NCBI GenBank assembly: GCA_963807915.1
Contig: CAWEDO010000001.1
Location: forward strand, 351,701 to 415,700
Length of the DNA stretch: 64,000 nucleotides
Reading direction: 5' to 3'
DNA from: an uncultured Chloroflexia bacterium
GTDB taxonomy: Bacteria; Chloroflexota; Limnocylindria; QHBO01
The notes beneath the pieces were generated by a model. The model did no database searches, was not told where the DNA came from, and was given only the letters and a program-made list of their open reading frames with translations. Position numbers and translations under genes: made by a program. Shown in pieces: positions 4,325 through 53,270 of this stretch. Positions within the stretch are counted from its first letter, which is position 1. Each line of letters opens with the position of its first letter.

Positions 4325-4331
4325 TCCAGGC

Positions 4332-36983: not shown

Positions 36984-38221
36984 CGACGGAAGACGGCGAC
37001 CGCGTTCTGGCCGCCGAAGCCGAAGCCGTTGATGATCGCCGTCCCCACCTGCGCCTCGCGTGCCGTGTTGGGGACGTAGTCGAGGTCGCAGGCCGGGTCC
37101 GGCGTCTCGTAGTTGATCGTCGGCGGCATCTTCCCGTCCCGGATCGCGCAGACCGCGGCGACCGCGGAGATCGCCCCGGCGGCCCCCAGGGTATGCCCGA
37201 TCATGCTCTTGTTGCTGCTGACCGCCAGGTGCGCGGCGTGGTCGCCGAACGCCGCGTGGATGGCCTTCGTCTCGGTCGCGTCGTTGAGCGGCGTGCCGGT
37301 GCCGTGGGCGACGACGTAGTCGACCTCCTCGGGCTCCACGCCGGCATCGCGCAGTGCCCGGGTCATGGCACGGGCCGCGCCGTCGCCCGTTGGGTCGGGG
37401 GCGCTGATGTGGAAGGCATCACCGGTCATCGCCCCGCCGGCGACCTCGGCGATGATGCGAGCCCCGCGTCCCTCGGCGTGCTCGGCCGACTCGACGGTGA
37501 GGACCGCGGCGCCCTCGCCGAAGACGAAGCCGTCGCGATTCGCGTCGAACGGGCGGGAGGCGCCGGCGGGATCGTCGTTCCGCTTCGAGAGCGCGCCCAT
37601 GTTGGCCAGGGCGGCGAACGCGACTGGCAGGATGGCGCTCTCGGTGCCGCCGGCGATCACCACCTCCACGTCGCCATGCTCGATCAGGCGCTGCGCGTCG
37701 ATGAGCGCCTGCACCCCTGAGGCGCACGCCGCCACCGAGGCGATGACAGGCCCGTGCGTGCCGTTCTGGATGCTGATCTGGCAGGCTGCCATTGAGGGGG
37801 AGAGCATCGGCACCATGAAGGGGCTGACGCGCTTCCCGCCCTGCTCCAGGAAGACCCGCTCGCCGATGGCCACGTCGCCGATCCCCCCGCCGCCGGTGTT
37901 GACGATCACCCCGATGTCGTTGCGGTTCGCGTCGGTGATCTCGAGGCCGGCATCGGCGATCGCCTGGGCCGCGGCCGCCACGGCGAACTGCGAGAAGCGG
38001 CTCATCCGCCTCGCCTGCTTGAAGTCGATCCAGGTCGCCGGATCGAAGCCCTTCACCTCGGCCGCGATCCGCACCTCCTCGGCCGACGCGTCATAGCCGC
38101 TGATCGGCCCGACTCCGCTCGTGCCGGCCAGCAGGCTGGCCCAGAAGCTGGCGGCGTCGTTGCCAATGGGCGTGATCGCTCCGAGGCCAGTCACCACGGC
38201 GCGCCGTCGTGGGTCCTTCAT
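36965..38221 (-). CDS. fabF: Beta-ketoacyl-ACP synthase II (copy 2)
   Basis: VVTGLG, AACASG (catalytic Cys), SRPFD, AHGTGT, KSMIGH, GFGFGGQN. Confidence 0.92.
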   Translation of the reverse strand: MKDPRRRAVVTGLGAITPIGNDAASFWASLLAGTSGVGPISGYDASAEEVRIAAEVKGFDPATWIDFKQARRMSRFSQFAVAAAAQAIADAGLEITDANRNDIGVIVNTGGGGIGDVAIGERVFLEQGGKRVSPFMVPMLSPSMAACQISIQNGTHGPVIASVAACASGVQALIDAQRLIEHGDVEVVIAGGTESAILPVAFAALANMGALSKRNDDPAGASRPFDANRDGFVFGEGAAVLTVESAEHAEGRGARIIAEVAGGAMTGDAFHISAPDPTGDGAARAMTRALRDAGVEPEEVDYVVAHGTGTPLNDATETKAIHAAFGDHAAHLAVSSNKSMIGHTLGAAGAISAVAAVCAIRDGKMPPTINYETPDPACDLDYVPNTAREAQVGTAIINGFGFGGQNAVAVFRRYESAG

Positions 38222-39501
38222 CCCTCGGCTCGAGCGAGGATCAGCGTGCTGTTGTGCCCGCCGAGCCCCATCGAGTTCGACAGCGCCACGCGGCTGTCCG
38301 TCTGACGCGCCGTGTTTGGCACGTAGTCGAGGGTGAGCTCGGGATCGGGATGGCGGTAGTTGATCGTCGGCGGGATGCAGCCGCTCTGCACGACGCGGGC
38401 GCATACGAAGGCCTCGAACGCTCCGGCCGCGCCCATCATGTGACCGGTCATGCTCTTGGTGGAGCTGACCGCCAGCTTGCGGGCGTGGTCGCCAAAGACC
38501 GCCTCGATCGCCATGGATTCATATCGATCGTTGAGCGGCGTGCTCGTGCCATGGGCGTTGATGTAGTCGACCGCCTCGGGGCCGATGCCCGCGCGCTCCA
38601 GCGCAGCCCGCATGGATCGCTGGCTCCCCTCGCCGCGCTCGGCCGGCGCCGCCATGTGGAAGGCGTCGGACGACGAGCCATAGCCGATCACCTCGGCGAT
38701 CGGGGTGGCCCCGCGCGCGCGGGCATGCTCCATCTCCTCCAGGACGAGCACGGCGCATCCCTCGCTGACCACGAAGCCGTTACGGGTCGCGTCGAAGGGG
38801 CGGGAGGCGATGGTCGGGTCATAGGCGCCGGTGTCGGGGTCGATCGGGGAGCCGAGGGCTCGCATCTGGCCGAAGCCAGCGAACGCGATCGGCACGATGA
38901 CGGCCTCCGTGCCTGCCCCGAGCATGAGATCGGCCTGGCCGCGCACGATGGTCTCCATCGCCTCGCCGATGGCGTGCCCGCCGGTGGCACAGGCGCTCAC
39001 CACGGCCAGGTTGGGGCCACGGATCCCGTACTGGATCGCGACCATCCCCGAGGCGGCATCCGGGATCATGTGCGGCAGCAGGAACGGCGAGACGCGGCTC
39101 GGCCCGCGCTCGTTGAGGGTGGCCAGGCCATCGGCGATCATCCCGATGCCCCCGATGGCGGTGCCGACGATCATCCCGAACCGATCCGGATCGGCCTGGG
39201 CGGCGTCGAGCATCCCGTCGGCGTTCAGCAAGCCGGCATCCTTGAGCGCCTCGCCCGAGGCGGCCACTGCGAAGTGCGTGTTGCGATCGTGCCGCCGCGC
39301 GTCCTTGCCGTCCATGTACTGGCTGACGTCGAAGCCCTTCACCTCCCCGGCGACATGGATCTCGTAGTCGGTCGTGTCGAAGAGCGTGATGTCGGCCACG
39401 CCCGATCGGCCCGCCACCAGCGCGTCCCACGATGCGTCGGCCCCGATCCCGACCGGTGAGACGACCCCGAGTCCGGTGACGACGACCCGTCTCGCGCTCA
39501 C
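38218..39501 (-). CDS. fabF: Beta-ketoacyl-ACP synthase II (copy 1)
   Basis: VVTGLG, SACATG, SRPFD, NAHGTST, KSMTGH, SMGLGGHN. Confidence 0.92.
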   Translation of the reverse strand: MSARRVVVTGLGVVSPVGIGADASWDALVAGRSGVADITLFDTTDYEIHVAGEVKGFDVSQYMDGKDARRHDRNTHFAVAASGEALKDAGLLNADGMLDAAQADPDRFGMIVGTAIGGIGMIADGLATLNERGPSRVSPFLLPHMIPDAASGMVAIQYGIRGPNLAVVSACATGGHAIGEAMETIVRGQADLMLGAGTEAVIVPIAFAGFGQMRALGSPIDPDTGAYDPTIASRPFDATRNGFVVSEGCAVLVLEEMEHARARGATPIAEVIGYGSSSDAFHMAAPAERGEGSQRSMRAALERAGIGPEAVDYINAHGTSTPLNDRYESMAIEAVFGDHARKLAVSSTKSMTGHMMGAAGAFEAFVCARVVQSGCIPPTINYRHPDPELTLDYVPNTARQTDSRVALSNSMGLGGHNSTLILARAEG

Positions 39502-40499
39502 GCAGATGCCTCGGCTCCGCCGGGGAGCCAGAGGGCGCCATCGCCAGGCGCGTCGAGGGCATGCGTCTGGGTCTCGGGCGCGATGCGCTTGATGAGGCCG
39601 CTGAGCACCCGCCCCGGCCCGATCTCGACGAAGTCGGTCACGCCGTCGGCCGCCATGTGACGGATCGTCTCGGTCCACTGCACGCCGTGGACGAGGTGCT
39701 CGGAGAGCTCCCGGCGCAGGCCGTCGGCGGTGCGGATGAGGCTGGCGTGCACGTTGCCGAGCATCGGCACGCGTGGCTCGCGGAACGGGACCTTGGCCAG
39801 GATCTGGCTGAACTCGTCGCGCGCGCGGCGCATGAGCGGGGAGTGGCTGGCGACGCTCACCGTCAGGCGCACCGCCTTGCGAGCACCGACCGTCTTGCTC
39901 ATCTCCAGGGCGAAGGCGAGGGCGGGGATGACGCCGGAGAGGACGATCTGCCCGGGAGCGTTGGCGTTCGCGACGCCGATCTCGCCGTGCTCACGGGCCG
40001 CGTCCACGATCTCGTGCACCTGCTCGTCGGAGAGGCCGATGACCGCGCCCATGCCGCCCTCGATGCCGCGCTCCTGCATGATCCGGCCACGCTCGCGCAC
40101 GAGGTTGATGGCGGCCTCGAAGTCGATCGCGTCGGCGGCGACGGCGGCGGCGTATTGCCCGGCCGAGTGGCCCGCCAGGCGGATCGGCGCCAGCTCCACG
40201 CCGGCCTCGGCCGCCTCGGCGCGCATCGCCTCGAGGTAGGCGACGCTGGTGGCGAGGATCGCCGGCTGGGCGTTGACGGTCAGGTCCAGCTCCTCGGCGG
40301 GACCCTCGGCGATCATGCGCGACAGCGGAAAGCCGAGTGCGGCGTCGGCGCGCTCCATCACCGCGGCGGCGGCGGGAGAGCGCTCGAGCAGGGCGGCTCC
40401 CATCCCCACGTACTGCGAGCCTTGTCCCGGAAATACGAACGCGTGGGCGTGGGGCGGGGAGGCCGGCTCGGGAAGATCGGTATCGTCGGTCATGCGCAT
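39498..40499 (-). CDS. fabD: Malonyl-CoA:ACP transacylase
   Basis: FPGQGSQ, AQPAI, GHSAG nucleophile, RG..MQ, SVASHS, EIGPG. Confidence 0.93.
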   Translation of the reverse strand: MRMTDDTDLPEPASPPHAHAFVFPGQGSQYVGMGAALLERSPAAAAVMERADAALGFPLSRMIAEGPAEELDLTVNAQPAILATSVAYLEAMRAEAAEAGVELAPIRLAGHSAGQYAAAVAADAIDFEAAINLVRERGRIMQERGIEGGMGAVIGLSDEQVHEIVDAAREHGEIGVANANAPGQIVLSGVIPALAFALEMSKTVGARKAVRLTVSVASHSPLMRRARDEFSQILAKVPFREPRVPMLGNVHASLIRTADGLRRELSEHLVHGVQWTETIRHMAADGVTDFVEIGPGRVLSGLIKRIAPETQTHALDAPGDGALWLPGGAEASA

Positions 40500-40553
40500 C
40501 GGCCAGTCAGTTGATTTGGGCGCGAGTATAGCCGAGCACGCTCGAATCGCCGC

Positions 40554-41966
40554 TCAGGAGTGCTCCGCATCCCGTACGAAGCGGCTCACGACGTCATGGA
40601 GTACCGGCAGCCCGAACCGGATGGCGCTCACCGGGATCCGCTCGTCATGACCGTGGAAGAGCGACAGGAACGGCATCTCCGGGGACAACTGCAGCGGAGC
40701 AAACCCGTACGTCGGGATGCCGAGCAGGGCCAGGGCCTTGGCGTCGGTCCCCGGCGTGATCATCATCGGGGCCGCCAGCGCCCCGGGGTCTGCGTCGAGC
40801 AGCGCCTGGCGCATGAGGTCCACGATCGGAGCGTCGGCCGGCGCCTCGGTTGGCGGCATGAGCAGGACCGGCGTGACCTGCGCCAGCTCTCCTACGGTCG
40901 CCTGCATCTGTGCCAGGAGTGCCTCCTGGTCTGTGCCGGGCAGCGTGCGCACGTCGATCTCGGCTTCGCCGCTGCCGGGGATGACGTTCATCTTCTTCCC
41001 CGAATGGATCATGTTGGGCGTGACCGTGTCGCGCAGCATCGCCGCCAGCGAGCGGCGCAGGACGGGATCGTCGACAACGGCGTCGATGGCGGCGAAGGCA
41101 CCGTCCTCATCCGCGGCCCGCACCCGGTCCGCGACCGCGCCCAGGCCGAGCGCGACGAGGAACGCGTCGACCACCGGCGTCATCCGCATCGGCTGGGCCG
41201 TCGATGCGAGGCGCGTCACCGCCTCGGCCAGCTTGATGGCGGCGTTGTCGGGATGCGGCATCGACCCGTGCCCGGTCATTCCGGTGGTGGTCATGCGGGT
41301 CCAGGCAATCCCCTTCTCGGCGACCTGGATGGTGTAGACGCGCCGACCGCCGACCGTCATCGAGTAGCCGCCGACCTCGTTGAGCGCGGCGGCCGCCGGG
41401 CGGCCGAGGGCGTCGCCGAAGAGATCGGGACGGGTCTGGACCCAGTGCAACGCGCCGAAGGTCCCGCCCGCCTCCTCGTCGGCGACGGCGGCGAAGATGA
41501 CCTCCCGACGCCGCTCGCCGCCGGACCACGCGAGCGCCAGCATCACGCTCAGCTCCATGGCGACCATGTCCTTCATGTCGACCGCACCGCGGCCCCAGAT
41601 CGCCCCGTCGATGAGCTCTCCGCCGAACGGGTCGTGGCTCCACGACTCCAGGTCGACCGGCACCACGTCGATGTGGGAGAGAAGCACGAGCGGCGGCTCG
41701 GGATCGGCCACCGTCGCGGGGAGGCGGGCGAAGCAGGAGCCGCGTCCGGGGGCCGGCTCCAGCACCTCCGCGGCGATCCCTTCCGAACCCAGCACCTCGG
41801 CGCAGTAGGCGGCAGCCGCGGTCTCCCCGCCGGTCGAGTCTCGTCCTGCCGCTCCGTCTGCCACGCCGGGGGGATTGACGCTGGGGATCCGGATCAGCGC
41901 CTGCAGGTGCTCGATGCACTCCGCGCTGGCGCGGTCCCAATCCACCTCCGGCGACGATCTCTGCAT
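40554..41966 (-). CDS. M20/M25/M40 family metallo-hydrolase
   Basis: SHIDVVP, GRGAVDMK, DEEAGG, NEVGG, GHGS, HGHDER. Confidence 0.92.
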   Translation of the reverse strand: MQRSSPEVDWDRASAECIEHLQALIRIPSVNPPGVADGAAGRDSTGGETAAAAYCAEVLGSEGIAAEVLEPAPGRGSCFARLPATVADPEPPLVLLSHIDVVPVDLESWSHDPFGGELIDGAIWGRGAVDMKDMVAMELSVMLALAWSGGERRREVIFAAVADEEAGGTFGALHWVQTRPDLFGDALGRPAAAALNEVGGYSMTVGGRRVYTIQVAEKGIAWTRMTTTGMTGHGSMPHPDNAAIKLAEAVTRLASTAQPMRMTPVVDAFLVALGLGAVADRVRAADEDGAFAAIDAVVDDPVLRRSLAAMLRDTVTPNMIHSGKKMNVIPGSGEAEIDVRTLPGTDQEALLAQMQATVGELAQVTPVLLMPPTEAPADAPIVDLMRQALLDADPGALAAPMMITPGTDAKALALLGIPTYGFAPLQLSPEMPFLSLFHGHDERIPVSAIRFGLPVLHDVVSRFVRDAEHS

Positions 41967-41971
41967 GCTGC

Positions 41972-42922
41972 TCAGGGGTAGCTCCGCGCCGGCGCCTGGT
42001 CGGCGCTGGAGAGCGGCCGCGCGGCCGCGACGTGTACCTCGGAGTGCCGGGCATGAACGAGCCGTCCCAGCGGCCACTCGGCGGCAAGCAGCAGGAGTGC
42101 CGCGACGAGCAGCACCGGCAGCTGCCAGGCAGCCCCGATCAGGATCAGCGACAGGAGGAAGAAGCCGTGGATCGCGATCCGCGTGCCGAGCGCCAGCCGC
42201 AGCTCCAGGATCGCCTGGCGCGCGCCATCTGGCGGCACGCGATCGGGACCCCACACGCCCCAGGCCGAGATGGCGACGAAGGCCGCCATCGCCACGCCGA
42301 AGAGCCAGAGGCCGCCACCCGGCTCTGCGTCGACCAGCGGACGCAGGATCGAGAACGGCACCAGCCCGGCCAGCAGCAGGAGCCAGGCGGGGAACGGGAC
42401 GGCCAGCTGCAGCCACTCGAGCGCCGGCCGGCCGCGCGACGCGTCGCGCAGCCAGCGAGTCATCACGCTGAAGCCGAGCGTCACGAAGAGCCAGGCGTAG
42501 AAGTTGCCGGCCGGCACCCCGAACCAGCCCTCGGTCGGGCTGATGCCGCGCCAGGTCCAGAGCCCCATCCGGATGGCGATCGCGTCGAAGGCCAGGTCCA
42601 GGCTGATGGCCAGCACCGCGTCGACGAACGGGGCATATCGCCGTCGCACACCGAGGGCATCGGTCAGCCGCATGGCTCCAGCGATGATCAAGGCCCAGGT
42701 CATGCCGATGACGACCGGCGCCAGATCGATGGTAAGGATCCAATCGGGCGAGTAGTGGTAGGTCCTGAAGACGAGCTGATCGCCCTCTTCGAGCAGGATC
42801 CCGAAGGCGGCGGCCGAGATCAGCTCCAGGAACGGCAGGCGGCCCCGTCGCAGCGCGGCGACGGCGGCGCCGATGAAGAAGAGCGAGGCGGAGAGCTCAA
42901 TGAGCACGTACAGCGGATTCAT
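41972..42922 (-). CDS. CruF-like (carotenoid biosynthesis/DUF422) membrane protein
   Basis: DLAFDAIA..GLWTW, WFGVPAGNFYAW. Confidence 0.7.
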   Translation of the reverse strand: MNPLYVLIELSASLFFIGAAVAALRRGRLPFLELISAAAFGILLEEGDQLVFRTYHYSPDWILTIDLAPVVIGMTWALIIAGAMRLTDALGVRRRYAPFVDAVLAISLDLAFDAIAIRMGLWTWRGISPTEGWFGVPAGNFYAWLFVTLGFSVMTRWLRDASRGRPALEWLQLAVPFPAWLLLLAGLVPFSILRPLVDAEPGGGLWLFGVAMAAFVAISAWGVWGPDRVPPDGARQAILELRLALGTRIAIHGFFLLSLILIGAAWQLPVLLVAALLLLAAEWPLGRLVHARHSEVHVAAARPLSSADQAPARSYP

Positions 42923-42960
42923 TCCGGACCGATCATATCGGCCCGCGACCTGCGGCCGCT

Positions 42961-44238
42961 CTACACCGCTCGGGCAGGGGCGACCGGTGGGGTCCGACGC
43001 CGCAGCAGGGCTCGCGCCAGCAGGCCGATGGCGAACATGGCCAGTCCCGCCAGGATGGCCGGAAGGGGCAGCGTGACCACCAGGGTGACGCAGCCGAGCA
43101 GCCCGACCACGTTGAGCGCTCGTGGCCACCGCCGCTCCTCGATCGGCTGCGTGTAGGCCGCCGCATTGGCGATCGCGTAGTAGGTCAGGACCCCGAACGA
43201 GCTGAAGCCGATGGCGCCGCGCAGGTCGGTCGTGGCGACCAGGACGACGACCGCCGCCGCGATCGCCAGCTCGGCGTGATGGGGCACGTGCCGGCGCACG
43301 TCGACGGCGGCGAGCGTGCGCGGCAGGTCGCCCTCGCGAGCCATGGCCAGCGCCGTTCGGCCGATCCCCGCGATGAGCGCCAGCAGGGCTCCCAGGCTCG
43401 CGGCGACCGCCCCGACGCGAACCGCCGGCAGCGCCCAGGACGAGCCGGCCGCTTCGAGTGCCGTGGCCAATGGCGCATTGCTGGCGGCGATCGCGTGCGA
43501 TCCCGCGACCAGCAGGGCGGCGGCCCCGACCAGCAGGTAGACGGCCACCACGATGCTCAGCGCGATCGGGATGGCGCGCGGAATCGTCCGCCCGGGGTCC
43601 CGCACCTCCTCACCCAGGGTCGCGATGCGCGCATAGCCGGCGAACGCGAAGAAGAGCAGGCCGGCCGATTGGAGCACGCCGTACGGCCCCCCGGGCAGGT
43701 CGCCGATCGCCAGGTTGCGAGCATCCGCGTGGCCGCTCACGAACGAGATGACGACGACCAAGGCAAGGGAGAGGAGCGAGACTGCCACGAGGGTGCGCGC
43801 AAGTGCGGCTGTGCGAGTGATGCCGCGCAGATTCACCGCCGTGAGGACCAGGACGGCCACCACGCCGACCAGCCGCTGGATCCAGGTCGTCCCCGGGACC
43901 GCGTATGCCGCGAAGGTCAGCGCCATCGCCGCGCAGGAGGCGGTCTTGCCGATCACGAAGCCCCAGCCGGCGGCGAAGCCCCACCACTCGCCGAGCCGCT
44001 CGCGCCCATAGACGTAGGTCCCGCCGGAGGTGGGGTAGCGCGCCGCCAGCTGCGCCGAGGCGACCGCGTTGCAGTAGGCAACTCCGGCCGCCAGTGCCAG
44101 GCCGATCAGCAGCGCGCTGCCGGCCGCCGCCGCGGCGGGGGCGAAGGCCGAGAAGACCCCCGCCCCGATCATCGAGCCGAGCCCGATGACGACCGCGTCG
44201 AACTTCCCCAGCCGGCGGGCCAGTGGCGCCGAGGTCAT
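42961..44238 (-). CDS. APC family amino-acid permease
   Basis: GLGSMIGAGVF, YPTSGGTY, FFAFAGY, EEVRDP.RTIP. Confidence 0.92.
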   Translation of the reverse strand: MTSAPLARRLGKFDAVVIGLGSMIGAGVFSAFAPAAAAAGSALLIGLALAAGVAYCNAVASAQLAARYPTSGGTYVYGRERLGEWWGFAAGWGFVIGKTASCAAMALTFAAYAVPGTTWIQRLVGVVAVLVLTAVNLRGITRTAALARTLVAVSLLSLALVVVISFVSGHADARNLAIGDLPGGPYGVLQSAGLLFFAFAGYARIATLGEEVRDPGRTIPRAIPIALSIVVAVYLLVGAAALLVAGSHAIAASNAPLATALEAAGSSWALPAVRVGAVAASLGALLALIAGIGRTALAMAREGDLPRTLAAVDVRRHVPHHAELAIAAAVVVLVATTDLRGAIGFSSFGVLTYYAIANAAAYTQPIEERRWPRALNVVGLLGCVTLVVTLPLPAILAGLAMFAIGLLARALLRRRTPPVAPARAV

Positions 44239-44726
44239 AGCGCGGCGGCGACCCGGCGTGCCGCGTCCGCCAGCTCTTCGTCCGTGACGTTGGGGAGCAC
44301 GTCCTCCCAGAGCGGCAGCATCATGTTCTTCGCCTGCAGCATGCCGAGCGGCCGGGGCATGAACCAGACGTGGAAGTGCGCACCGCCATCGCCCCATCGG
44401 TACAGGTGGACTCGGCCGACGTCGCCCAGCGCGAGAATCGCGCGCTCGATCCGCGCCGCCAGCGGCCCGAAGGCGGCGGCCGCTTCCGGCGAGAGGTCCT
44501 TGAACGAGTCGACGTGCTCGCGGCTGGCGAGCCACACGACCCCGGGCAGGCTGCCACCGACGGGTGGATGGAGAGTGAAGTGCTCGTCCCCCCAGACTGC
44601 GGCCGTCGCGCCGCCGTCGCAGATCCCGCACGGCTCGCCCCCCGGCTCACCTCGCCGCGGGGGCTCGGGGATCACGGGCTCGGCGAGCGGGCGGAGGGTC
44701 AGTGGTTCGAGATAGGGCATTTGCAC
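44235..44726 (-). CDS. HIT-like protein (HxHxW variant)
   Basis: CGIC Zn motif, REHVDSF, GDGGAHFHVWF; AGGAG RBS. Confidence 0.7.
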   Translation of the reverse strand: MQMPYLEPLTLRPLAEPVIPEPPRRGEPGGEPCGICDGGATAAVWGDEHFTLHPPVGGSLPGVVWLASREHVDSFKDLSPEAAAAFGPLAARIERAILALGDVGRVHLYRWGDGGAHFHVWFMPRPLGMLQAKNMMLPLWEDVLPNVTDEELADAARRVAAAL

Positions 44727-44770
44727 GGCTTGACTCCTGTCTGCTTCAGATTCGGGTCGCGGGTGAGCGC

Positions 44771-45607
44771 CTAGAGGCGGGGTGGGCCGCGGCGGATTCG
44801 CTCGCGGACGGTATCGACCGATTGGTCGTCCTCCCAGCGGCTCTCGATGAACCAGGTGGCGCCGGCCTCCGCCATGGGCTCGAGCATTGCACGATCCGCC
44901 TCGTGATCGACGCCCGAGGTCAGGCCCTCGATGACGACGTCGAACGGTTCGGAGGATTCGCGATGCTTAGCCATCCAATCCACCACCCCGGCCACCACCT
45001 CGGGCGTGGCGTCCTCGTCGTCACGCTCGCCCGACTTGTCCGCGACGATGATCCCGTCCCAGCGCGCAGACCGCCGAAGGGACCTGGGATGCGGCCAGGC
45101 GCCGACCGGCCAGACGGGGATGCGCGGCTGCTGTACGGGGCGCGGGTCGAAATGGAGGTCCCGCATCCAGTAATGCGTTCCCTGGTAGCTCACGGTTTCT
45201 CCAGACCAGGCCAGCTCCAGGATGTCCAGGCACTCGTCGAGCTTCTCCGCGCGCACACGGCGGGACGGATCTTCCGTGCTGACCCTCGAGTAGCCCCCAT
45301 CCCACGTCCCGCCCAGGCCAACCGGCACGACCAGCCGGCCGTTCGACAGGTTGTCCAGCGTGATCGTCTCGCGAGCCACTTTCCACGGTCGCCGGCGCGG
45401 CAGGGAGAAGACCATGGCCCCCAGTGTCACTCGCTGTGTGACCGCCGCCATGGCTCCCAGCACGACCCATGGGTCGAAGACGTCGCCGCGTTCGACGGAG
45501 ATGTCGTCCCAGGCGAAGACGCCGTCCCAGCCGGCTTCCTCCGCCTCTCGCGCCATGATCACGTAGTCCTGCGCGCTTCCGAATGACGTGATGACTCCGA
45601 ACTTCAT
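44771..45607 (-). CDS. LLM-class flavin-dependent oxidoreductase
   Basis: AEEAGWDG, DPWVVLGAMA, TLDNLSNGR..GLG, PVQQPRIPVW. Confidence 0.9.
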   Translation of the reverse strand: MKFGVITSFGSAQDYVIMAREAEEAGWDGVFAWDDISVERGDVFDPWVVLGAMAAVTQRVTLGAMVFSLPRRRPWKVARETITLDNLSNGRLVVPVGLGGTWDGGYSRVSTEDPSRRVRAEKLDECLDILELAWSGETVSYQGTHYWMRDLHFDPRPVQQPRIPVWPVGAWPHPRSLRRSARWDGIIVADKSGERDDEDATPEVVAGVVDWMAKHRESSEPFDVVIEGLTSGVDHEADRAMLEPMAEAGATWFIESRWEDDQSVDTVRERIRRGPPRL

Positions 45608-46461
45608 GCTCGTTCTCCTCGTACTGCCGACACTTCGGTTGGCGCGACGGCGGTCGGCAGGCGACCGGCAGCGCGCCGCGCGATCTCGATGAACGGGCGG
45701 AGGCGGACGGAGAGCTCCGTCCGCGTCGCGCGAAATGCTTCCAGCCGCTCCTCATCGCGGCCCTCGACGGCAGCGGGGTCGTCGAGGTGCCAGTGCAGGG
45801 AGCTGTGCGGGCCAGGCAGGCTGGGACACTCCTCGCGGGCCGAGTTGGAGAGGGTGATGACGTAGTCGATCGGCTCGTGGATCAGCTCGCTCACCGGTTT
45901 CGCGCGGGCGTGGCTCCAGTCGATGCCCAGCTCGGCCAGGACGCGAACGGTCAGTGGATGGACCGCCTTCGGCCGCGTCCCGGCCGAGAATGGCCGGAAG
46001 TCGCTGCCGCCGAAGCGGCCGAGCAGCGCCTCGGCCATCTGGCTGCGTGCCGAGTTGCCGTTGCACACGAAGAGGACGCCGATTGGTTGCGCTCGCTGAG
46101 CCCGACGGGTCGGATCTGCGACCTCCAGCGTCTGCTCGAGGTCGGCGAGCTCGACCTCGAGGCGCTCGAGCTCCTCTCGCTGGAGAGCGATGCGCCGCCG
46201 CTCGTCCTCGAGCGTGGCGACCAGCGCCGGGTCGGCCCCATCCCCCGCCAGACAGCGATCGGCGAGCTCCCCTGCCTTCGCGGGGCTCATCCCAAGCCGG
46301 CGCAGCGTCAATACCAGGGTCAGGCGCGAGAGGTCGGCATCGGTATATGTGCGGTAGCCGTTCGGGCGTCGAGCGGGCTGCGGGAGGATGCCCTCCGCCT
46401 CGTACCAGCGAACGCCGGAGGGCGAGATGCCGGCGCGTCGCGCGAGGCTCGAGATGTTCAC
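45604..46461 (-). CDS. MerR-family regulator fused to an ArsC/LMW-PTP domain
   Basis: N-terminal MerR HTH (ISSLARRAGIS..VRWYEAEGIL..NGYR.Y) and coiled coil; C-terminal CNGNSARSQMAE, SAGT, HW.LDDP. Confidence 0.9.
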   Translation of the reverse strand: MNISSLARRAGISPSGVRWYEAEGILPQPARRPNGYRTYTDADLSRLTLVLTLRRLGMSPAKAGELADRCLAGDGADPALVATLEDERRRIALQREELERLEVELADLEQTLEVADPTRRAQRAQPIGVLFVCNGNSARSQMAEALLGRFGGSDFRPFSAGTRPKAVHPLTVRVLAELGIDWSHARAKPVSELIHEPIDYVITLSNSAREECPSLPGPHSSLHWHLDDPAAVEGRDEERLEAFRATRTELSVRLRPFIEIARRAAGRLPTAVAPTEVSAVRGERA

Positions 46462-46467
46462 CTGTGC

Positions 46468-46498
46468 AGCCTAATCCTTGTAGTGACTGCAAAGTCAA
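46468..46498 (-). promoter_or_regulatory. MerR-type promoter/operator (19-bp spacer with dyad)
   Basis: On the minus strand, TTGACT-ttgcagtcactacaaggat(19)-TAGGCT. The spacer holds the imperfect inverted repeat TTGCAG-tca-CTACAA. The GTG start lies 6 nt after the -10 box. Confidence 0.85.
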
Positions 46499-46530
46499 GG
46501 CCCCTCGGCGCGCGGCGTAGAATCCGGCGC

Positions 46531-47973
46531 ATGGCCACCCAGGTGAGATCCGAGACGGTTCCAATCTTCCTCGCCGGCGAATTCGTGCGCGCGGGCTCCC
46601 CTCTCGAAGTTCGCAACCCGGCAACCGGTGAGCTGGTGGCGACCACCTGGCAGGCCGGCATCGAGGAGCTGGAGCGGGCGACGGTCGCCGCGGTCGAGGC
46701 CTTCGACAAGACGCGTCGCCTGGCGAGCTTCGAGCGGCGCGATGCGCTGGCGCACGTGGCCGAGCGGATCAGCAAGGACGCCGACGAGCTGGCGGAGCTG
46801 CTGAGCCGAGAGTCGGGGAAGCCGGTCCGCGACGCAAAGGGCGAGGTGGCGCGCGGTGCGCTCACCTTCCGCACCGCCGCCGAGGAGGCGCTCCGCATCA
46901 ACGGGGAGTGGCTTCCCCTCGATTGGGCAGCGGCCAACCGCGGGCGGAGCGGCATCGTGCGCCGCTACCCGATCGGCCCGGTCGCCGGAATCAGCCCGTT
47001 CAACTTCCCGCTCAACCTGGCGGCCCATAAGGTCGCGCCGGCGATCGCCGCCGGCTGCAGCATCGTGCTCAAGCCGCCATCCAAGGACCCGCTCGTCATG
47101 CTGCGCGTCGCCGGCTACCTGGCCGAGACGAGCCTGCCGAAGGGCGCCGTCTCGATCCTGCCGATGGATCGGCCGACGGGCGATCGGATGGTCGCGGATG
47201 ATCGGTTCAAGCTGCTCAGCTTCACGGGGAGCCCATCGGTCGGCTGGAAGATGAAGGCGGAGGCCGGCAGGAAGAAGGTCGTCCTCGAGCTCGGCGGCAA
47301 TGCCGGCGCGATCGTCGACGAGACCGCCGACCTGGACTGGGCCGTCGCCCGCCTGGCGTATGGCTCCTTCGCCTATTCGGGCCAGGTCTGCATCAGCGTC
47401 CAGCGCATCTACGTGGTGGCGTCGGTCTACGACGAGTTCCAGCAGCGCTTCGTGGAGAAGGTGCGGCAGCTCCAGATGGGCAGCCCCCTTGATCCGGCGA
47501 CCGACCTGGGACCGATGGTCGACGCCAAGGCTGTCGCGCGCACGCACCAGTGGGTCGGCGAGGCACTGGCCGACGGCGCGAGGGCACTCGTCGGCGGCGA
47601 GCCGGACGGGCTGTTCTACCCGCCGACCGTGCTCGTCGACGTTCCCAAGGACGCGCGGGTCTGCGGCGAGGAGGTCTTTGCCCCGGTCGTGAACCTCTTC
47701 CCGGTGCCGGACTTCAGGGCCGCGATCGCCCAGATCAACGACAGCCAGTTCGGGCTGCAGTGCGGCGTCTTCACCAACGACCTTGAGCGGACCCTCCTCG
47801 CGCACGACGAGCTCGAGGTCGGGGGCGTGATCGTCAACGACGTCCCGACCTGGCGCACCGACGCGATGCCCTATGGCGGCGTGAAGGACTCGGGCCTGGG
47901 TCGCGAGGGGCTGCGCTGGTCGATCGAGGACATGACCGAGCCACGCCTGCTGGCGTTCGCCCGGCCGCTGTAG
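46531..47973 (+). CDS. Aldehyde dehydrogenase family protein
   Basis: ISPFNFP, FTGS, LELGGN, GQVCIS, EEVFAP, PYGGVKDSGLGREG; TAGAAT 7 nt upstream. Confidence 0.95.
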   Translation: MATQVRSETVPIFLAGEFVRAGSPLEVRNPATGELVATTWQAGIEELERATVAAVEAFDKTRRLASFERRDALAHVAERISKDADELAELLSRESGKPVRDAKGEVARGALTFRTAAEEALRINGEWLPLDWAAANRGRSGIVRRYPIGPVAGISPFNFPLNLAAHKVAPAIAAGCSIVLKPPSKDPLVMLRVAGYLAETSLPKGAVSILPMDRPTGDRMVADDRFKLLSFTGSPSVGWKMKAEAGRKKVVLELGGNAGAIVDETADLDWAVARLAYGSFAYSGQVCISVQRIYVVASVYDEFQQRFVEKVRQLQMGSPLDPATDLGPMVDAKAVARTHQWVGEALADGARALVGGEPDGLFYPPTVLVDVPKDARVCGEEVFAPVVNLFPVPDFRAAIAQINDSQFGLQCGVFTNDLERTLLAHDELEVGGVIVNDVPTWRTDAMPYGGVKDSGLGREGLRWSIEDMTEPRLLAFARPL

Positions 47974-47979
47974 GCCCCC

Positions 47980-48348
47980 ATGACCGATCTTGCGGCGGCG
48001 CCCGCCGACCGGGCCGTCCGCTATGCACGTGTCCTTCCGGCCTCCGAGCTGCGTGACGGGGAGCTGATCCCGGTCGAGATCAACGGCTGGCCAGTCGTCC
48101 TGGTGCGGCAAAGGGGCTCCTTCTACGCCGTCCAGAACAACTGCTCCCACAAGGACTTCCCGCTGTCAGAGGCCGGATTCGATCCACGCGACGAGGTGCT
48201 CGTCTGTGCCTGGCACGGCGGCTGCTTCGACCTGCGCACCGGCGCGGCGGTCGTCCCGCCCGCCACCGAACCGATCGAGATCTTCCCCGTGCGCGTGAGC
48301 GGCGATGGCTGGGTCGAGATCGGCCTCACCGGCAGCCTCGCCCGCTGA
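47980..48348 (+). CDS. Rieske [2Fe-2S] ferredoxin
   Basis: CSH...CAWHGGCFDLRTG ligand set. Confidence 0.92.
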   Translation: MTDLAAAPADRAVRYARVLPASELRDGELIPVEINGWPVVLVRQRGSFYAVQNNCSHKDFPLSEAGFDPRDEVLVCAWHGGCFDLRTGAAVVPPATEPIEIFPVRVSGDGWVEIGLTGSLAR

Positions 48349-48359
48349 GCGCCCGACCG

Positions 48360-49139
48360 ATGGACCTCGAGGCGCTGCCGTACGTCAACTGGATCTTCTG
48401 GGCGGCCCTCACCTCCGGATCGCTGCTCGTGGTCGGCGGCACCGAGCTGCTCGGTGGAACGACCCGCGGCTATCGGCTCTTCATGGCGGGCCTGCTGGCC
48501 GTCTGCGCTGCAGTCCTCCTCGTCTCGGAGCTGAACCTCGTCACGACCCCGGCGGTCGACGCCACGGCGGACTTCCGTCGCGGGCTGGTCTGGGCCTGCG
48601 CGGCGCTGACCGGCGCGTACCTCGTCGCATCCATTGCCCGCCTGCCGCGCAGCGGCCTCGCCATTGCCGCCGGCTCGGCCGGGATCTTCGCATTGGCGGC
48701 GCTCGCCGCTGCCGGCGGCACGCTCAGCGCGCCCCTCTTCACGGCGCAGCTGATGCTGGTCGCGGTCGCGCTCGGGGCGGTGACGGCGGCGATGCTACTT
48801 GGACACTGGTACCTGGTGACGCCGAAGCTCTCGCCGGCGCCACTGCGCCGCATGATGTGGCTGCTGCTCGCCTCACTCGGCCTGCAGGCGCTCCTCTTCG
48901 TCGTTGCCGTCACGGCGGTCAGCAGCGGCCCCCTCGGCGGCCCGATCGGATGGCTGACCTGGCTGCGCCTGGTGGCCGGCATCCTGCTGCCGATCGGGAT
49001 CACCGTGCTGGCGCTGCTCGCCAGCCGCGCCGCGTCGCTGCAGGCCAGCACCGGCCTGCTGTACATCGGCCTGGCGCTGGTCATGGCGGGGTCGATTGCG
49101 GGCGCCAGCCTTGCCTACCTCACCGGCGTGCCGGTCTGA
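48360..49139 (+). CDS. Polytopic membrane protein (DmsC-anchor-like)
   Basis: About 8 TM; AMLLGHWYL and STGLLY motifs. Confidence 0.6.
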   Translation: MDLEALPYVNWIFWAALTSGSLLVVGGTELLGGTTRGYRLFMAGLLAVCAAVLLVSELNLVTTPAVDATADFRRGLVWACAALTGAYLVASIARLPRSGLAIAAGSAGIFALAALAAAGGTLSAPLFTAQLMLVAVALGAVTAAMLLGHWYLVTPKLSPAPLRRMMWLLLASLGLQALLFVVAVTAVSSGPLGGPIGWLTWLRLVAGILLPIGITVLALLASRAASLQASTGLLYIGLALVMAGSIAGASLAYLTGVPV

Positions 49140-49147
49140 CCCGGCCG

Positions 49148-49804
49148 ATGGAGGTCACCGTCCGCTGCTTCGCTACCCTCCGCGAGCTGGCGGGCGCCCG
49201 CAGCACGCTGGCGATGCCCGATGGCGCGGTGCTCGACGACGCCTGGGCCGCACTCGCCGAGATGCATCCGGGGCTCGCCCCGCATCGGCCCTTCGTCCGA
49301 GCCGCGCGGAATGGCGAGTACGCCGAGTGGGCGACGCCACTCGAGGAGGGCGACGAGATCGCGTTCCTGCCGCCGGTCAGTGGCGGCGGCCCGACTGGGC
49401 TGACGGACGGCGCGATCGACGTCGCGGCCCTCGAGGCGGCGGTGGCGGCGAGCGGGCACGGTGCCGTCGTCACGTTCGTCGGGCGGGCGCGCGACCGAGC
49501 CGATGACGGCCGCAAGGTGCTCGAGCTCGAGTACGAGGCCTACCCCGAGATGGCGGACTCCGTTCTGGACGAGATCGTGGGGGAGGCCGAGGAACGCTGG
49601 ACCGGGGCGGTCGCAGCCGTCGTGCATCGGGTCGGCATCGTGCCGATCGGCGAGGCGGCGGTCGCGATCGTCACCGCCGCTCCCCATCGCTCCGAGGCAT
49701 ACGAGGCCAATCGGTTCCTGATCGAGGCCATCAAACAGCGCCTCCCCATCTGGAAGCGCGAGCGCTTCGCCGATGGCAGCGAGTGGAAGCGGCCCGGCGC
49801 CTAG
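49148..49804 (+). CDS. MoaD-MoaE fusion molybdopterin synthase (MoaX-like)
   Basis: FATLRE..EIAFLPPVSGG (MoaD) in frame with GAVVTFVG, LEYEAY, HRVG, APHR, PIWKRE (MoaE). Confidence 0.92.
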   Translation: MEVTVRCFATLRELAGARSTLAMPDGAVLDDAWAALAEMHPGLAPHRPFVRAARNGEYAEWATPLEEGDEIAFLPPVSGGGPTGLTDGAIDVAALEAAVAASGHGAVVTFVGRARDRADDGRKVLELEYEAYPEMADSVLDEIVGEAEERWTGAVAAVVHRVGIVPIGEAAVAIVTAAPHRSEAYEANRFLIEAIKQRLPIWKRERFADGSEWKRPGA

Positions 49805-50349
49805 CCCGACTGGCGCCTTACCTCCGCCAGCCACCGGTCGGCGGCGCGCCCCGACCGCAGCCGGATCGCGACGAGGTCCGGCCGTGCGGCAAGCAGGGGC
49901 GGGTACTCGCGCCGGCGCAGGCGGTAGGTGGTGAGGATCCACCACAGCAGCGAGTCGCGGCTGAAGAGGTGGGTCGAGAGGCGTTCGCGGTTGCCGCTCC
50001 ACAGCTCCTCGCGGCGGGCGACGCGCCGGGTGGTCCGGACCAGGTACCGCCACAGGACTGTCCGCAGCGGCAGGTCGAGCCATACGACCGCCTCGGCGCG
50101 TTCCCAGAGCAGGTCCCGCACCTTCGCGTAGTTGCCGTCCACGACCCACCCGTCAGCGGCGATTGCTGTAGCGACCCGCTCGCGCAGGACGTCGTCCGGC
50201 GCCTCGGTCCAGTCGGGCTCCCAGTGGAGCGCGTCGAGCTCGACGTGCGGCACCCCCAGGCTCGAGGCCAGCGCGGCCGCCAGGGTCGACTTCCCGGTTG
50301 CGCTGGTCCCGACCACGTTGATCCGGCGCGCGGAGAATCGGTCGGGCAT
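49801..50349 (-). CDS. Adenylate-kinase-like P-loop protein
   Basis: GTSATGKST, ELDALHW, WVVDGNY, WLDLP. Confidence 0.85.
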   Translation of the reverse strand: MPDRFSARRINVVGTSATGKSTLAAALASSLGVPHVELDALHWEPDWTEAPDDVLRERVATAIAADGWVVDGNYAKVRDLLWERAEAVVWLDLPLRTVLWRYLVRTTRRVARREELWSGNRERLSTHLFSRDSLLWWILTTYRLRRREYPPLLAARPDLVAIRLRSGRAADRWLAEVRRQSG

Positions 50350-50468
50350 GGGCCTCCCTCGCTGGTCGTCGGCGGCCGACATTCTAGGCGGCGGCAGGGG
50401 TGGCGCCGCAGCATCGGCCCCAATGCCTGCTGGCGGATGCCGGGTGGCCTCATGTACCCTGCGGCGGT

Positions 50469-51671
50469 ATGTCCACCCCCCTCCCCGGGCAGATTCGCTG
50501 TCCGACCTGCCACCGCTCCACCCCGCCGGCGGCCTTCTGCACGCAGTGTGGGACGGCGATCCCGGCGTCGGCCCGGGCGAGGCCGCGCGGCCTCGATCGC
50601 GAGGAGCTTCAGGACCGGATTCGGATCCACCGGCCGGGCGATGCCGCGTTCCGGCGGGGCTCGACGCCCGGCGAGGGGTACGAGCCGCCGCCCTCCCCGT
50701 ACCAGCCGTTCCGGCCCGAGCCCGAGGATGAGCTGGTCCTGCCCGGGTCGGAGAGCGGCGAGACTCCGGCCCGCGTCGACAACACGCCGCCGGGCTTCGA
50801 CGACCGCCCGCCGCCGATCCCGGCCGCCCCGCCTCCGCCGGTCGTGCAGCCACCGCAGGCGCCTCCGCCGCCGGCGCGGGTCTTCAAGCAGCCCGCCCCC
50901 GCCGTGTCACCGCGGGCTGCCGCTGCCCAGCCGCCCCCGGTCGTCGCTCCGTCACCGGTCGTCGCCGCGCCGCCCCCTGCCGCACCCGCCCACGAATTCG
51001 ACGAGCCGGAGCAGCCCTACGACCCGGCCGAGCCCTACGACTACCGCTACCCCCCGCCCGACGACGAGTGGCGCCGCCGGGGATCCGGCTCGGGCTCCGG
51101 CATGGGTCCACTCGCCGTCGGCGGGTTCGTCCTGCTCGGCATCCTGGCGATCGCGGTCGGTGCCGTGATGGCCGGCGTATTCAGTGGTGGCGTCGCCGTC
51201 GAATCGCCGTCGAGCACCCCGCTCATCTCGGTGGCCCCGAGCGTGACCCTGGAGCCGAGCCTCGGGCCGTCGACGCAGCCGTCGAGCGGCCAGCCGACCC
51301 CTGCCGCGAGCGGCGGTTCGCCCCTTCCCTTCCCGGATGGGTTCAACGCCCGAACCGAGCCCTGCGCCGAGGAGCCCGCCAGCCAGGACGGCTGCAACTC
51401 GAGCGGCGCCACGGTCAGCGGCGGATCGGTCTGGGTCTGGATCGGCTTCAGGAAGGGCAATTCCGAGGACCTGCTGTCGGTCAGCGTCGTGAATGCCTCT
51501 GGCCAGACGGTGGGCGACGGGAGCCTCTCGCTCGGTTCCATCGGCTGCGCGAACCCGTGCAGCGGATGGGCGCGCTTCCGCTTCAGCGGCCTTGCGGTCG
51601 GGAACTACACGATCCGGGTCGAGCGCAACGAGACGCTCGCCGCCGAGGCCACCTTCACGGTGACCGGCTAG
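50469..51671 (+). CDS. Zn-ribbon / Pro-rich / single-TM protein with Cys-containing extracellular Ig-like domain
   Basis: CPTC..FCTQCG, long Pro-rich region, TM (LAVGGFVLLGILAIAVGAVMA), S/T linker, C-terminal GNYTIRVE beta domain. Confidence 0.75.
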   Translation: MSTPLPGQIRCPTCHRSTPPAAFCTQCGTAIPASARARPRGLDREELQDRIRIHRPGDAAFRRGSTPGEGYEPPPSPYQPFRPEPEDELVLPGSESGETPARVDNTPPGFDDRPPPIPAAPPPPVVQPPQAPPPPARVFKQPAPAVSPRAAAAQPPPVVAPSPVVAAPPPAAPAHEFDEPEQPYDPAEPYDYRYPPPDDEWRRRGSGSGSGMGPLAVGGFVLLGILAIAVGAVMAGVFSGGVAVESPSSTPLISVAPSVTLEPSLGPSTQPSSGQPTPAASGGSPLPFPDGFNARTEPCAEEPASQDGCNSSGATVSGGSVWVWIGFRKGNSEDLLSVSVVNASGQTVGDGSLSLGSIGCANPCSGWARFRFSGLAVGNYTIRVERNETLAAEATFTVTG

Positions 51672-52744: not shown

Positions 52745-52874
52745 CGGGGATGGCTGACGCCCTCCTGCGAACGATGGCGGGCGCCGTCGCGGCGCGGAGC
52801 AGGCCCGCAGCTGAAGCGGCCCCGATCCTAGCAGAGGCCGTCCAGCCGGGGGCTCCTGCTACCATCGATCGGCC

Positions 52875-53270
52875 ATGCCCGACGACCGCCGCACCTACAC
52901 GATGGACGAGGCAAACGCGCTCATTCCGCAGGTCCGCGCGGTCCTGCTGCAGCTCGCCGTCCAGCAGCGCCGGCTCGACGCCTCGCATGCCGAGATGCAC
53001 CGCCAGCTCGATGCGAACGGCGGCCCGGAGGGCGCCATGGCGGCCGGCCGCCAGGAAGCGGAGACGGCCGACATTCGCGAGGGGATGCGGACGCTGCTCG
53101 TCCACCTCAGCGAGATGGCGGTCGAGCTGCGCGACATCGAGATGGGCCTGGTCGACTTCCCGGGCGAACGCGACGGCGAGCCCGTCTGGCTCTGCTGGCG
53201 CCTGTCCGATGCGCGCGTCGCGTTCTGGCACCCGACCGACGAGGGGTACGCGACGCGGCGGCCGTGGTGA
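52875..53270 (+). CDS. DUF2203 family protein
   Basis: YT.DEANALIP, GLVDFP, WLCWR, FWH...GYA.RRP. Confidence 0.85.
   Translation: MPDDRRTYTMDEANALIPQVRAVLLQLAVQQRRLDASHAEMHRQLDANGGPEGAMAAGRQEAETADIREGMRTLLVHLSEMAVELRDIEMGLVDFPGERDGEPVWLCWRLSDARVAFWHPTDEGYATRRPW

Follow-up and report, generated by a model that had tools for sequence, protein, structure and literature searches.

A MerR-type regulator with an arsenate reductase-derived domain in the Limnocylindria: a candidate one-component sensor in two forms

What does an arsenate reductase fold do when it is joined to a MerR-type DNA-binding domain, carries serine in place of its first resolving cysteine, and stands at the head of an operon that holds no other arsenic gene? 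The question is raised by a single gene in a 64,000-nucleotide stretch of DNA from an uncultured soil Chloroflexota bacterium of the class Limnocylindria (C1:351701-415700, hereafter the window). Its product joins an N-terminal MerR half to a C-terminal domain of the fold shared by thioredoxin-coupled arsenate reductases (ArsC) and low-molecular-weight protein tyrosine phosphatases (LMW-PTP). A first-pass annotation, made from the letters alone, had called it a fusion with a broken redox relay and had proposed a new one-component regulatory system. The comparisons described below indicate that the protein is very probably an autoregulating MerR-type regulator with an ArsC-derived sensor, and that it belongs to a family of which a second, arsenic-linked form survives in related genomes.

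Architecture and conservation of the fusion protein

Profile searches place a MerR-type winged helix-turn-helix at residues 1-68 (Pfam MerR_1, 53.7 bits against a cut-off of 21.6; MerR, 43 bits against 28.2) and an LMWPc domain at residues 129-257 (59.8 bits against 23.2). Against NCBIfam the C-terminal half scores best with arsC_pI258_fam (TIGR02691), at 99 bits and thus below the cut-off of 174.3, with PRK13530 at 81.5 against 215; the NmlR equivalog NF041849 likewise stays below its cut-off (44.1 bits against 175). The AlphaFold2 model, computed from a 62-sequence alignment, has a mean predicted local distance difference test score (pLDDT) of 88.9 and a predicted template modelling score of 0.71, and runs from the winged helix-turn-helix through a helix of residues 60-72 bearing Cys70 and a long helix of residues 78-115 into the ArsC fold. 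Residues 1-110 align to CueR and CadR in a sequence search of the PDB, and Foldseek matches the two halves separately, one to ArsCs and the other to CueR, CadR and NmlR; no PDB chain in the Foldseek search spans both halves, the best query-normalized TM-score (TMq) being 0.45. A MerR domain, a coiled coil and an ArsC domain with an intact CX5R loop, as first described, are thus borne out by Pfam, NCBIfam and AlphaFold2 alike.

Both the loop CNGNSAR and the segment VITLSNSAREECP are found in the protein, which carries Cys133 in C-NGNSA-R, Ser205 in VITLS and Cys212 in EECP. These three residues align to Cys15, Cys87 and Cys94 of Deinococcus indicus ArsC2 (8P5N/8P6M; HMMER, E 7e-34), an alignment that confirms serine at the first resolving-cysteine site (Cys82 in the numbering of the pI258 enzyme). 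PMC10483234 describes the three D. indicus residues as a catalytic triple-cysteine system. The same protein is the closest solved structure to the ArsC half (Foldseek target-normalized TM-score, TMt, 0.90-0.93; 44-46% identity in the Foldseek alignments), and PtpA, YwlE and human LMW-PTP follow well behind the ArsCs, at E ~1e-5 and TMt 0.6-0.7. With the thioredoxin-coupled enzymes of S. aureus pI258, B. subtilis and D. indicus the domain shares its fold (TMt ~0.9, root mean square deviation 1.2-2.0 Å), the CX5R loop, the Cys89 equivalent and the D/E-D-P loop. It differs from them in the serine at Cys82, in Thr to Asn134 and Gly to His225, in the sub-cut-off NCBIfam score, in its DNA-binding domain and in its non-ars operon. 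Since it has neither Cys82 nor a score at the curated threshold, the fusion is not to be classed as a thioredoxin-coupled ArsC, though it is clearly derived from that family.

In a database search 8000 candidates were scored and 973 proteins fell at E <= 0.001; the conservation counts refer to the best 120 of these 973, which come from many assemblies and are 71-100% identical to the window protein. All 120 share its MerR + LMWPc architecture in Pfam, and its length. Where a source is named it is Candidatus Limnocylindria or Chloroflexota, and the database labels are generic ('MerR family transcriptional regulator', 'arsenate reductase'). Cys133, Arg139, Ser205, Cys212, Ser13, Gly16 and His225 are each kept in 120/120, Asn134 in 119 and Cys70 in 116, and the D/E-D-P acid loop is intact and invariant. 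A full-text search of a collection of papers, covering their main texts, found no description of a MerR-ArsC/LMWP fusion regulator.

Among representatives at 50% identity, the MerR + LMWPc architecture appears in a handful of clusters, almost all from one Chloroflexota class. The commoner combination is ArsR (HTH_5) with LMWPc, present in 15 of the 57 longer representative hits scanned, which agrees with the first-pass annotation, where the known ArsC fusions are to ArsR. ArsR-ArsC fusions resemble the window protein in placing a DNA-binding domain on the same ArsC fold, and differ from it in that the window fusion has a MerR-type DNA-binding half and an activator-style promoter. In ArsR itself the fold is that of a repressor, which As(III) releases.

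Two clades and a shared promoter

We searched 201 genomes of the same class, of which about 40 hold full-length fusions; the tallies include nine unpublished genomes, none of which supplied a locus. Two clades were assigned by identity rank ahead of any feature counting. Clade A comprises 14 genomes, the window included, at 70-100% identity to the window protein (14 loci, 1.5-kb flanks), and clade B comprises 26-27 genomes at 52-61% identity, from which 20 loci were taken with 5-kb flanks. Genes in related loci were called with a simple open reading frame picker based on third-position GC content, which fails occasionally (the fusion in L035 was read by hand), and neighbouring genes were counted within flanks of 1.5 to 7 kb in related genomes that are not independent samples.

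Six positions separate the clades (A/B: S13/A, G16/A, R69/L, N134/T, S205/C, H225/G). The replacement of Cys82 by serine is conserved throughout clade A, with Cys/Ser/Cys in all 14 loci as in the 120 database homologues, and all 20 clade B loci have Cys/Cys/Cys. Cys70 is present throughout the 34 loci. The broken relay of the first description therefore stands insofar as Cys82 is lost, but the relay is not simply broken. Because Cys133 and Cys212 are invariant despite that loss, and because Cys70 is kept in both clades, the pattern suggests that thiol chemistry has been rewired to pass from the enzyme domain to the hinge.

Clade B also reveals where the family comes from. Arsenic genes (acr3, arsM, arsN2, arsP, arsR or MIP/aquaporin) adjoin the fusion in 14 of its 20 loci. 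Among these neighbours ACR3 passes the TIGR00832 cut-off in L039 and L047 and falls short of it in L037 and L042, the arsenite methyltransferase ArsM scores above the NF008823 cut-off in seven loci, and the others are ArsN2, ArsP_1 permeases, ArsR and a MIP channel. The stop codon of the fusion overlaps the start of acr3 in L039 and that of the MIP gene in L051 and L052. Because clade B keeps three cysteines and adjoins ars genes in this way, the fusion family is rooted in arsenic biology, and the window form is a derived branch of it that did not arise independently. Homologues with all three cysteines in ars operons, which the first-pass annotation had named as grounds against its own reading, are thus found in the sister clade and not in the clade of the window. 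In two clade B loci, L047 (G179) and L048 (G020), the fusion follows an operon with a YfcE-type metallophosphoesterase and a second LMWPc protein with a 'Phosphatase-like_N' domain; Acr3 is present in L047 only.

The promoter is common to both clades. In 33 of the 34 loci the fusion gene is preceded by TTGACN, a spacer of exactly 19 bp with an 8+3+8 inverted repeat (5-8 of 8 positions symmetric), TANNNT, and a start codon 6-8 nt further on; the sole exception is L047, where the fusion gene lies inside an acr3 operon. MerR-activated promoters are typified by a 19-bp spacer with a central dyad, and the presence of such a spacer ahead of the fusion's own gene is what argues for autoregulation and makes a one-component MerR regulator with an ArsC-derived sensor, as first proposed, the best reading. 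Given the short distance from the -10 box to the start codon, the transcripts should be leaderless. In the 2.27-Mb genome TTGACN-N19-TANNNT occurs only 4 times and the clade A operator pattern once, at the fusion promoter, so that no further regulon member was found in the genome by its operator.

The half-site reads CCTT[GA][CT]AG in clade A and CCTTC[AG]AG in clade B. In step with it, the recognition helix carries Ser13 and Gly16 in 14 of 14 clade A loci and alanine in clade B (18/19 at position 13, 19/19 at position 16). To judge from these sequences, the paired differences look like a coordinated change of DNA specificity. Clade B fusions accordingly share with the window protein the architecture, the hinge Cys70, the 19-bp-spacer promoter and the leaderless start, and differ in retaining Cys82, in half-site, in Ala13/Ala16 and in their ars neighbours.

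The direction of change was read from 150 representative ArsC-like hits, of which 146 yielded an alignment, and from a maximum-likelihood tree of the ArsC domain built by a quick search. In this tree clade A forms one group (Shimodaira-Hasegawa-like approximate likelihood-ratio test, SH-aLRT, 94), which joins weakly (81-84) with the singletons P0122 (Cys/Ser/Cys) and P0123 (Ser/Ser/Arg). Because Cys/Cys/Cys is the majority state among the aligned representatives (117/146) and clade A is one group, the loss of Cys82 is probably a derived state that arose in a single event.

The two metagenome singletons, known from contigs of 1343 bp (P0122) and 1556 bp (P0123), are of interest in their own right. 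P0122 is a second Cys/Ser/Cys lineage at ~57% identity. P0123 is a MerR-LMWPc fusion without any of the three ArsC cysteines, with a P-loop reading S-NFNAA-R, Ser in place of Cys82 and Arg in place of Cys89, in which the MerR-domain cysteine is kept; scans of genome and metagenome contigs found no close locus for it. Among the representatives P0121-P0270 the ArsC fold is also joined to PhoU (P0184), MIP channels (P0179, P0258), GNAT (P0270), a domain binding cyclic nucleotides (cNMP; P0174), rhodanese (P0194, P0226) and histidine phosphatase (P0154), and it occurs in tandem LMWPc pairs.

The operon, its neighbours and the rival explanations

The features of the window locus are collected in Table 1. 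The fusion's TGA overlaps the ATG of the gene for an oxidoreductase of the luciferase-like (LLM) class, as read directly from the sequence, and the first-pass account of an ATGA coupling to this gene, followed by a HIT-like gene and an APC permease, is upheld by the sequence, Pfam, and AlphaFold2 with Foldseek. A second ATGA, absent from that account, overlaps the stop of the HIT-like gene with the start of the permease, and the predicted operon order is fusion-(LLM)-HIT-like-APC with two such couplings. The expected conservation of the LLM neighbour did not hold. It is a variable passenger, found in only 3 of 14 clade A loci and as a deletion remnant in one more, and the conserved partners are the HIT-like gene (14/14, directly after the fusion or the LLM gene), the permease (13/14) and an adjacent divergent aldehyde dehydrogenase (11/14). 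In the locus with the remnant, L004 (G108), the first ~22 and last ~66 residues of the LLM protein are left between the fusion and the HIT-like gene (bases ~2355-2591), which suggests that the gene was formerly more widespread in clade A and is now being lost. The wider neighbourhood, with fatty-acid synthesis genes, an M20 peptidase, a carotenoid-synthase-like membrane protein and a Rieske protein, is syntenic in 8 of 9 related genomes. Ordinary housekeeping context in the window includes a MoaD(ThiS)-MoaE fusion protein (49139-49804, plus strand) and two adjacent beta-ketoacyl synthase genes with an acyltransferase gene (36965-39678, minus strand). In a look-up of sequencing runs for this DNA one run contained 0.06 of the sampled words, and no RNA run was listed.

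Table 1. Features of the fusion locus, in positions of the window.
Feature	Positions	Strand	Basis or remark
MerR-ArsC fusion gene	45604..46461	-	285 aa, GTG start, intact open reading frame, predicted leaderless
MerR winged helix-turn-helix, residues 1-68	46258..46461	-	Pfam MerR_1
Cys70 codon, C-terminal end of helix 60-72, just ahead of the hinge to the dimerisation helix	46252..46254	-	AlphaFold2 helix limits
Long dimerisation (coiled-coil) helix, residues 78-115	46117..46230	-	AlphaFold2 secondary structure
ArsC/LMW-PTP-fold domain, residues 127-264	45670..46083	-	Pfam LMWPc 129-257
Cys133 codon, nucleophile of the CX5R P-loop (CNGNSAR), equivalent to pI258 Cys10	46063..46065	-	Aligns to D. 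indicus ArsC2 Cys15
Ser205 codon, site of the first resolving Cys (pI258 Cys82)	45847..45849	-	Aligns to D. indicus ArsC2 Cys87
Cys212 codon, equivalent to pI258 Cys89	45826..45828	-	Aligns to D. indicus ArsC2 Cys94
MerR-type promoter of the fusion: -35 TTGACT (46498-46493), 19-bp spacer, -10 TAGGCT (46473-46468)	46468..46498	-	6 nt, then GTG (46461)
Predicted 19-bp dyad operator CTTTGCAGTCACTACAAGG, 8+3+8, 6/8 positions symmetric	46476..46494	-	Sequence reading
LLM-class (luciferase-like, F420-type best hits) oxidoreductase	44771..45607	-	Pfam Bac_luciferase E 4.4e-35, NCBIfam
HIT-fold protein, 163 aa	44235..44726	-	AlphaFold2 and Foldseek
APC-family amino-acid-type permease	42961..44238	-	Pfam AA_permease_2 E 2.4e-42
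Divergent aldehyde dehydrogenase, its start 69 bp from that of the fusion	46531..47973	+	Pfam Aldedh E 1.3e-139

The divergent aldehyde dehydrogenase falls below all NCBIfam equivalog cut-offs, its best match being lactaldehyde dehydrogenase at 437.7 bits against 650. The phosphonoacetaldehyde and GapN-type models give lower scores than this one, and the enzyme was assigned to no subtype. A TAGAAT box lies 7 nt ahead of its ATG (46518-46523, plus strand), and from the position of this box the gene also looks leaderless; by eye, a TAGAAT or TACAAT box stands 5-10 nt before the start in 8 of 14 clade A upstream regions. The predicted operator, which the promoter of the dehydrogenase abuts, would lie ~45 bp upstream of the predicted transcription start of that gene. 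A divergent neighbouring promoter is also found at merR/merT.

This arrangement bears on the best surviving rival, in which the protein is a thiol-based sensor of redox or electrophile (aldehyde) stress of the NmlR/AdhR kind: oxidation or alkylation of Cys133 and Cys70 would switch on the aldehyde dehydrogenase and its helpers, and arsenic would no longer be involved in clade A. The proximity and retention of the dehydrogenase fit such a sensor, as do the conserved MerR-domain cysteine and a MerR half whose fit to NmlR models and structures is about equal to its fit to metal sensors. The P-loop cysteines of the LMW-PTP fold are, moreover, known to be oxidant-sensitive. However, Cys70 is equally conserved in arsenic-linked clade B and so is no novelty of clade A, and the 19-bp-spacer promoter drives the fusion operon while the dehydrogenase has a TAGAAT box of its own. 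The fusion has L-R-R at residues 52-54, where we take the sensing cysteine of NmlR/AdhR to lie, and its conserved MerR-domain cysteine is at position 70, off that site. We regard this explanation as improbable, though it fares best among the alternatives.

A second rival holds that the fusion is still primarily an arsenate reductase, working by a shortened Cys133 to Cys212 route or with a low-molecular-weight thiol, with the MerR half providing substrate-induced self-expression and the downstream genes as passengers. The intact and invariant CX5R loop, Cys212 and D/E-D-P acid loop are in its favor, and several clade B loci have no other ArsC-like gene nearby. Corynebacterium glutamicum Cg_ArsC2 (mycothiol/mycoredoxin-coupled, 3RH0) is among the structural matches, so an ArsC can work without Cys82. 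The single-cysteine C. glutamicum enzymes ArsC1 and ArsC2, which share with the window protein an LMW-PTP-fold ArsC without the Cys82 relay, are separate proteins that lack Cys89 as well. In the window protein Cys89 is invariant, and the resemblance to the thioredoxin-type enzymes is much closer.

The arsenic genes of the genome argue against a reductase role. Apart from the fusion, no ars gene was detected in the window by tblastn with Acr3, ArsP, ArsM, ArsR and MIP or with the Pfam models ArsB and HTH_5; whole-genome tblastn and Pfam searches bear out the earlier statement that arsB, acr3 and arsR are lacking there, and the clade A operon, holding no ars gene, is rightly called a non-arsenic one. 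An ars island lies on another contig of the same genome (C2, ~24.5-35.5 kb; loci L002 and L003), with an ArsP-type permease, two Acr3-like genes, ArsR, an ArsR-ArsC fusion, a second LMWP and a metallophosphoesterase. The ArsR(HTH_5)-ArsC fusion is one 230-aa frame (C2:32325-32885); the LMWP and the metallophosphoesterase each match in two pieces and may be frameshifted. A stand-alone three-cysteine ArsC is encoded at C2:419038-419460, and an ArsR-ArsM pair, an ArsR-ArsP pair and an ArsB-like gene also lie outside the window. Because the genome has this island, the stand-alone enzyme and the ArsR-ArsC fusion, the window fusion is not needed as an arsenate reductase and is not the main one of the cell. 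In addition, the clade A locus has no arsenite exporter, the coupling of the HIT-like gene and the permease to the fusion is unlike that of passengers, and the loss of Cys82 coincides with the pocket changes N134 and H225. A mainly enzymatic role is therefore less credible still than redox sensing.

The HIT-like protein gave no Pfam match (even at E <= 10), no NCBIfam match and no PDB sequence match. Its AlphaFold2 model (pLDDT 78.9) matches HIT-family structures in Foldseek at E 1.5e-6 to 1e-4 and TMq 0.5-0.62, among them Fhit and mycobacterial phosphorylases of diadenosine tetraphosphate (Ap4A). JGI labels its relatives 'Ap4A HIT family hydrolase', and the ESM Atlas returns 'HIT' cluster names, which we treat only as a lead. 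In all 41 aligned sequences the motif H117-F-H119-V-W121, set against the H-x-H-x-H-x-x of the HIT superfamily, has an invariant tryptophan in place of the third histidine of the triad, and C33-x-x-C36 is likewise invariant; in view of these motifs the activity may be that of a transferase or phosphorylase and not of a hydrolase. A close orthologue occurs in 18 of the 201 genomes, 14 with the clade A fusion, which all have it adjacent, and 4 without, one of these at a contig edge. No MerR-type promoter or dyad stands upstream of it in the three readable fusion-less loci (L065-L067). In one of these, L065 (G030, bases 4014-5489), the orthologue (77% identity) is followed directly by an LLM gene whose product is 41% identical to that of the window, so the two genes recur as a pair in another context.

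Such neighbours, a nucleotide-handling HIT fold and an amino-acid-type permease, could point to a sensor of phospho-ligands, whose P-loop binds, or is transiently phosphorylated by, a phosphate ester, phospho-amino acid or nucleotide tied to these two proteins. The phosphatase fold with its P-loop, the LMW-PTP, YwlE and PtpA matches in Foldseek, and the PhoU-LMWPc fusion among the relatives are consistent with this idea, and two clade B loci adjoin phosphate genes: L033 (G182) has Ppx/GppA and a SLAC1/TehA-type channel on one side and a histidine phosphatase with pstS-pstC-pstA on the other, and L046 (G002) has a PPK2 polyphosphate kinase 170 bp downstream of the three-cysteine fusion. The domain is, however, far nearer to ArsC than to phosphatases, as the E value for 8P5N attests, with arsenate reductases as the only sequence matches of the ArsC half, and the reductase-specific Cys212 (Cys89) is invariant. 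No kinase, phosphatase or phosphate-transport gene is present among the window genes scanned (36965 to 53270). We give this rival a low probability, the lowest of the three functional alternatives. Nothing found points to control of organoarsenical or organophosphorus catabolism, which the first-pass annotation had suggested. That the fusion is an assembly, frameshift or indel artefact or a decaying pseudogene is ruled out by the intact frame, the shared architecture of all 120 best homologues, the conserved promoter, cysteines and synteny, and the confident two-domain model, and nothing was found in its favor.

A recruited enzyme as the probable sensor of a MerR activator

The best explanation of these observations is an autoregulating MerR-type one-component transcription factor that has recruited a thioredoxin-type arsenate reductase as its sensor. 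An autoregulator of this type with an ArsC-derived sensor is very probable; to the account as a whole, with the mechanism and history set out below, we assign an even chance. Given the arsenic roots of the family, arsenate or a look-alike oxyanion is our first choice of signal, a choice held tentatively and at somewhat less than even likelihood. A signal route through Cys133, Cys212 and Cys70 is more doubtful. In such a scheme a dimer of the fusion would occupy the dyad, and an oxyanion, most likely arsenate, or an oxidant would react with the low-pKa Cys133 of the P-loop. Without Cys82 the adduct could not be resolved by the usual cascade, and would persist or move to Cys212 and/or the hinge Cys70. 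A change at the alpha4-alpha5 hinge would then re-orient the DNA-binding domains, realign the over-long spacer and turn transcription on.

The two clades illustrate a plausible route to this state. The ancestral state, represented by clade B, with the full Cys10/82/89 relay and in ars loci, probably coupled the reduction or binding of arsenate to activation of itself and of arsenite exporters. In clade A, Cys82 would then have been lost and the P-loop and pocket altered (Thr to Asn134, Gly to His225), changes that allow for a changed ligand. Two residues of the recognition helix and the operator half-site would have changed as well (CCTTC[AG]AG to CCTT[GA][CT]AG), and the clade would have taken over a different small regulon.

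Several points weigh against this account. We infer every mechanistic step beyond binding at the protein's own promoter, and for the genes of the putative regulon (HIT-like, APC permease, aldehyde dehydrogenase, LLM) no part in arsenic biology is known. Of the 18 genomes with the HIT-like orthologue, 4 lack the fusion, and in their readable loci no such operator stands upstream. In clade B, 6 of 20 loci have no nearby ars gene, two of them adjoining phosphate genes and four nothing suggestive; clade B loci usually also hold ArsR, and the clade B fusion may be mainly an enzyme rather than an arsenic sensor. Finally, the tree is the product of a quick search, its base is weak and unresolved, and the row used for rooting is itself a Cys/Ser/Cys fragment.

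Comparison with other MerR activators (MerR, CueR, ZntR, CadR, SoxR, NmlR/AdhR) sets the recruited-enzyme regulator in context. It shares with them the N-terminal winged helix-turn-helix, the long, presumably antiparallel dimerisation helix and a dyad in a 19-bp spacer between -35 and -10, and it matches CueR, CadR, MerR and HiNmlR in sequence or fold. Its effector part, in contrast, is a whole 140-residue enzyme fold, where theirs is a short metal loop, a 2Fe-2S site or a GyrI, TipAS or B12 domain; the promoter that it probably regulates is its own, and its mRNA is predicted to be leaderless. The novelty lies in the type of probable sensor that this MerR regulator carries, which exists both in an arsenic-linked, ancestral version and in a derived one without Cys82; fusions of ArsC to ArsR are already well represented.

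To the best of our knowledge, the known arsenic regulators ArsR, ArsD and AioXSR sense As(III). The fusion family might instead sense As(V) directly and transcriptionally through enzyme chemistry, its ArsC domain capturing or reducing arsenate and passing a thiol adduct or disulfide to the MerR-hinge cysteine so as to activate the promoter. Clade A would then represent a 'stalled-enzyme' version, one that retains the signal and has been redirected, together with its operator, to a new regulon of HIT-like, permease and aldehyde dehydrogenase genes. We offer this as a speculative proposal, on balance unlikely, if somewhat less so than the exact cysteine route given above.

If the recruitment is as described, a complete enzyme has become the signal-receiving module of a MerR activator, shedding one catalytic cysteine as its operator and regulon changed. 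It would be an example of the passage from enzyme to sensor in which the ancestral (arsenic-linked, three-cysteine) and derived (Cys82-less, non-arsenic) forms are both available to compare. The paired changes between Ser13/Gly16 and Ala/Ala and between the two half-sites provide a test case for the rules of DNA recognition by MerR proteins. The family could include the first one-component sensor specific for arsenate over arsenite, which would be of use in biosensors and in following arsenic and phosphate stress in the Limnocylindria, an abundant uncultured class of soil bacteria.

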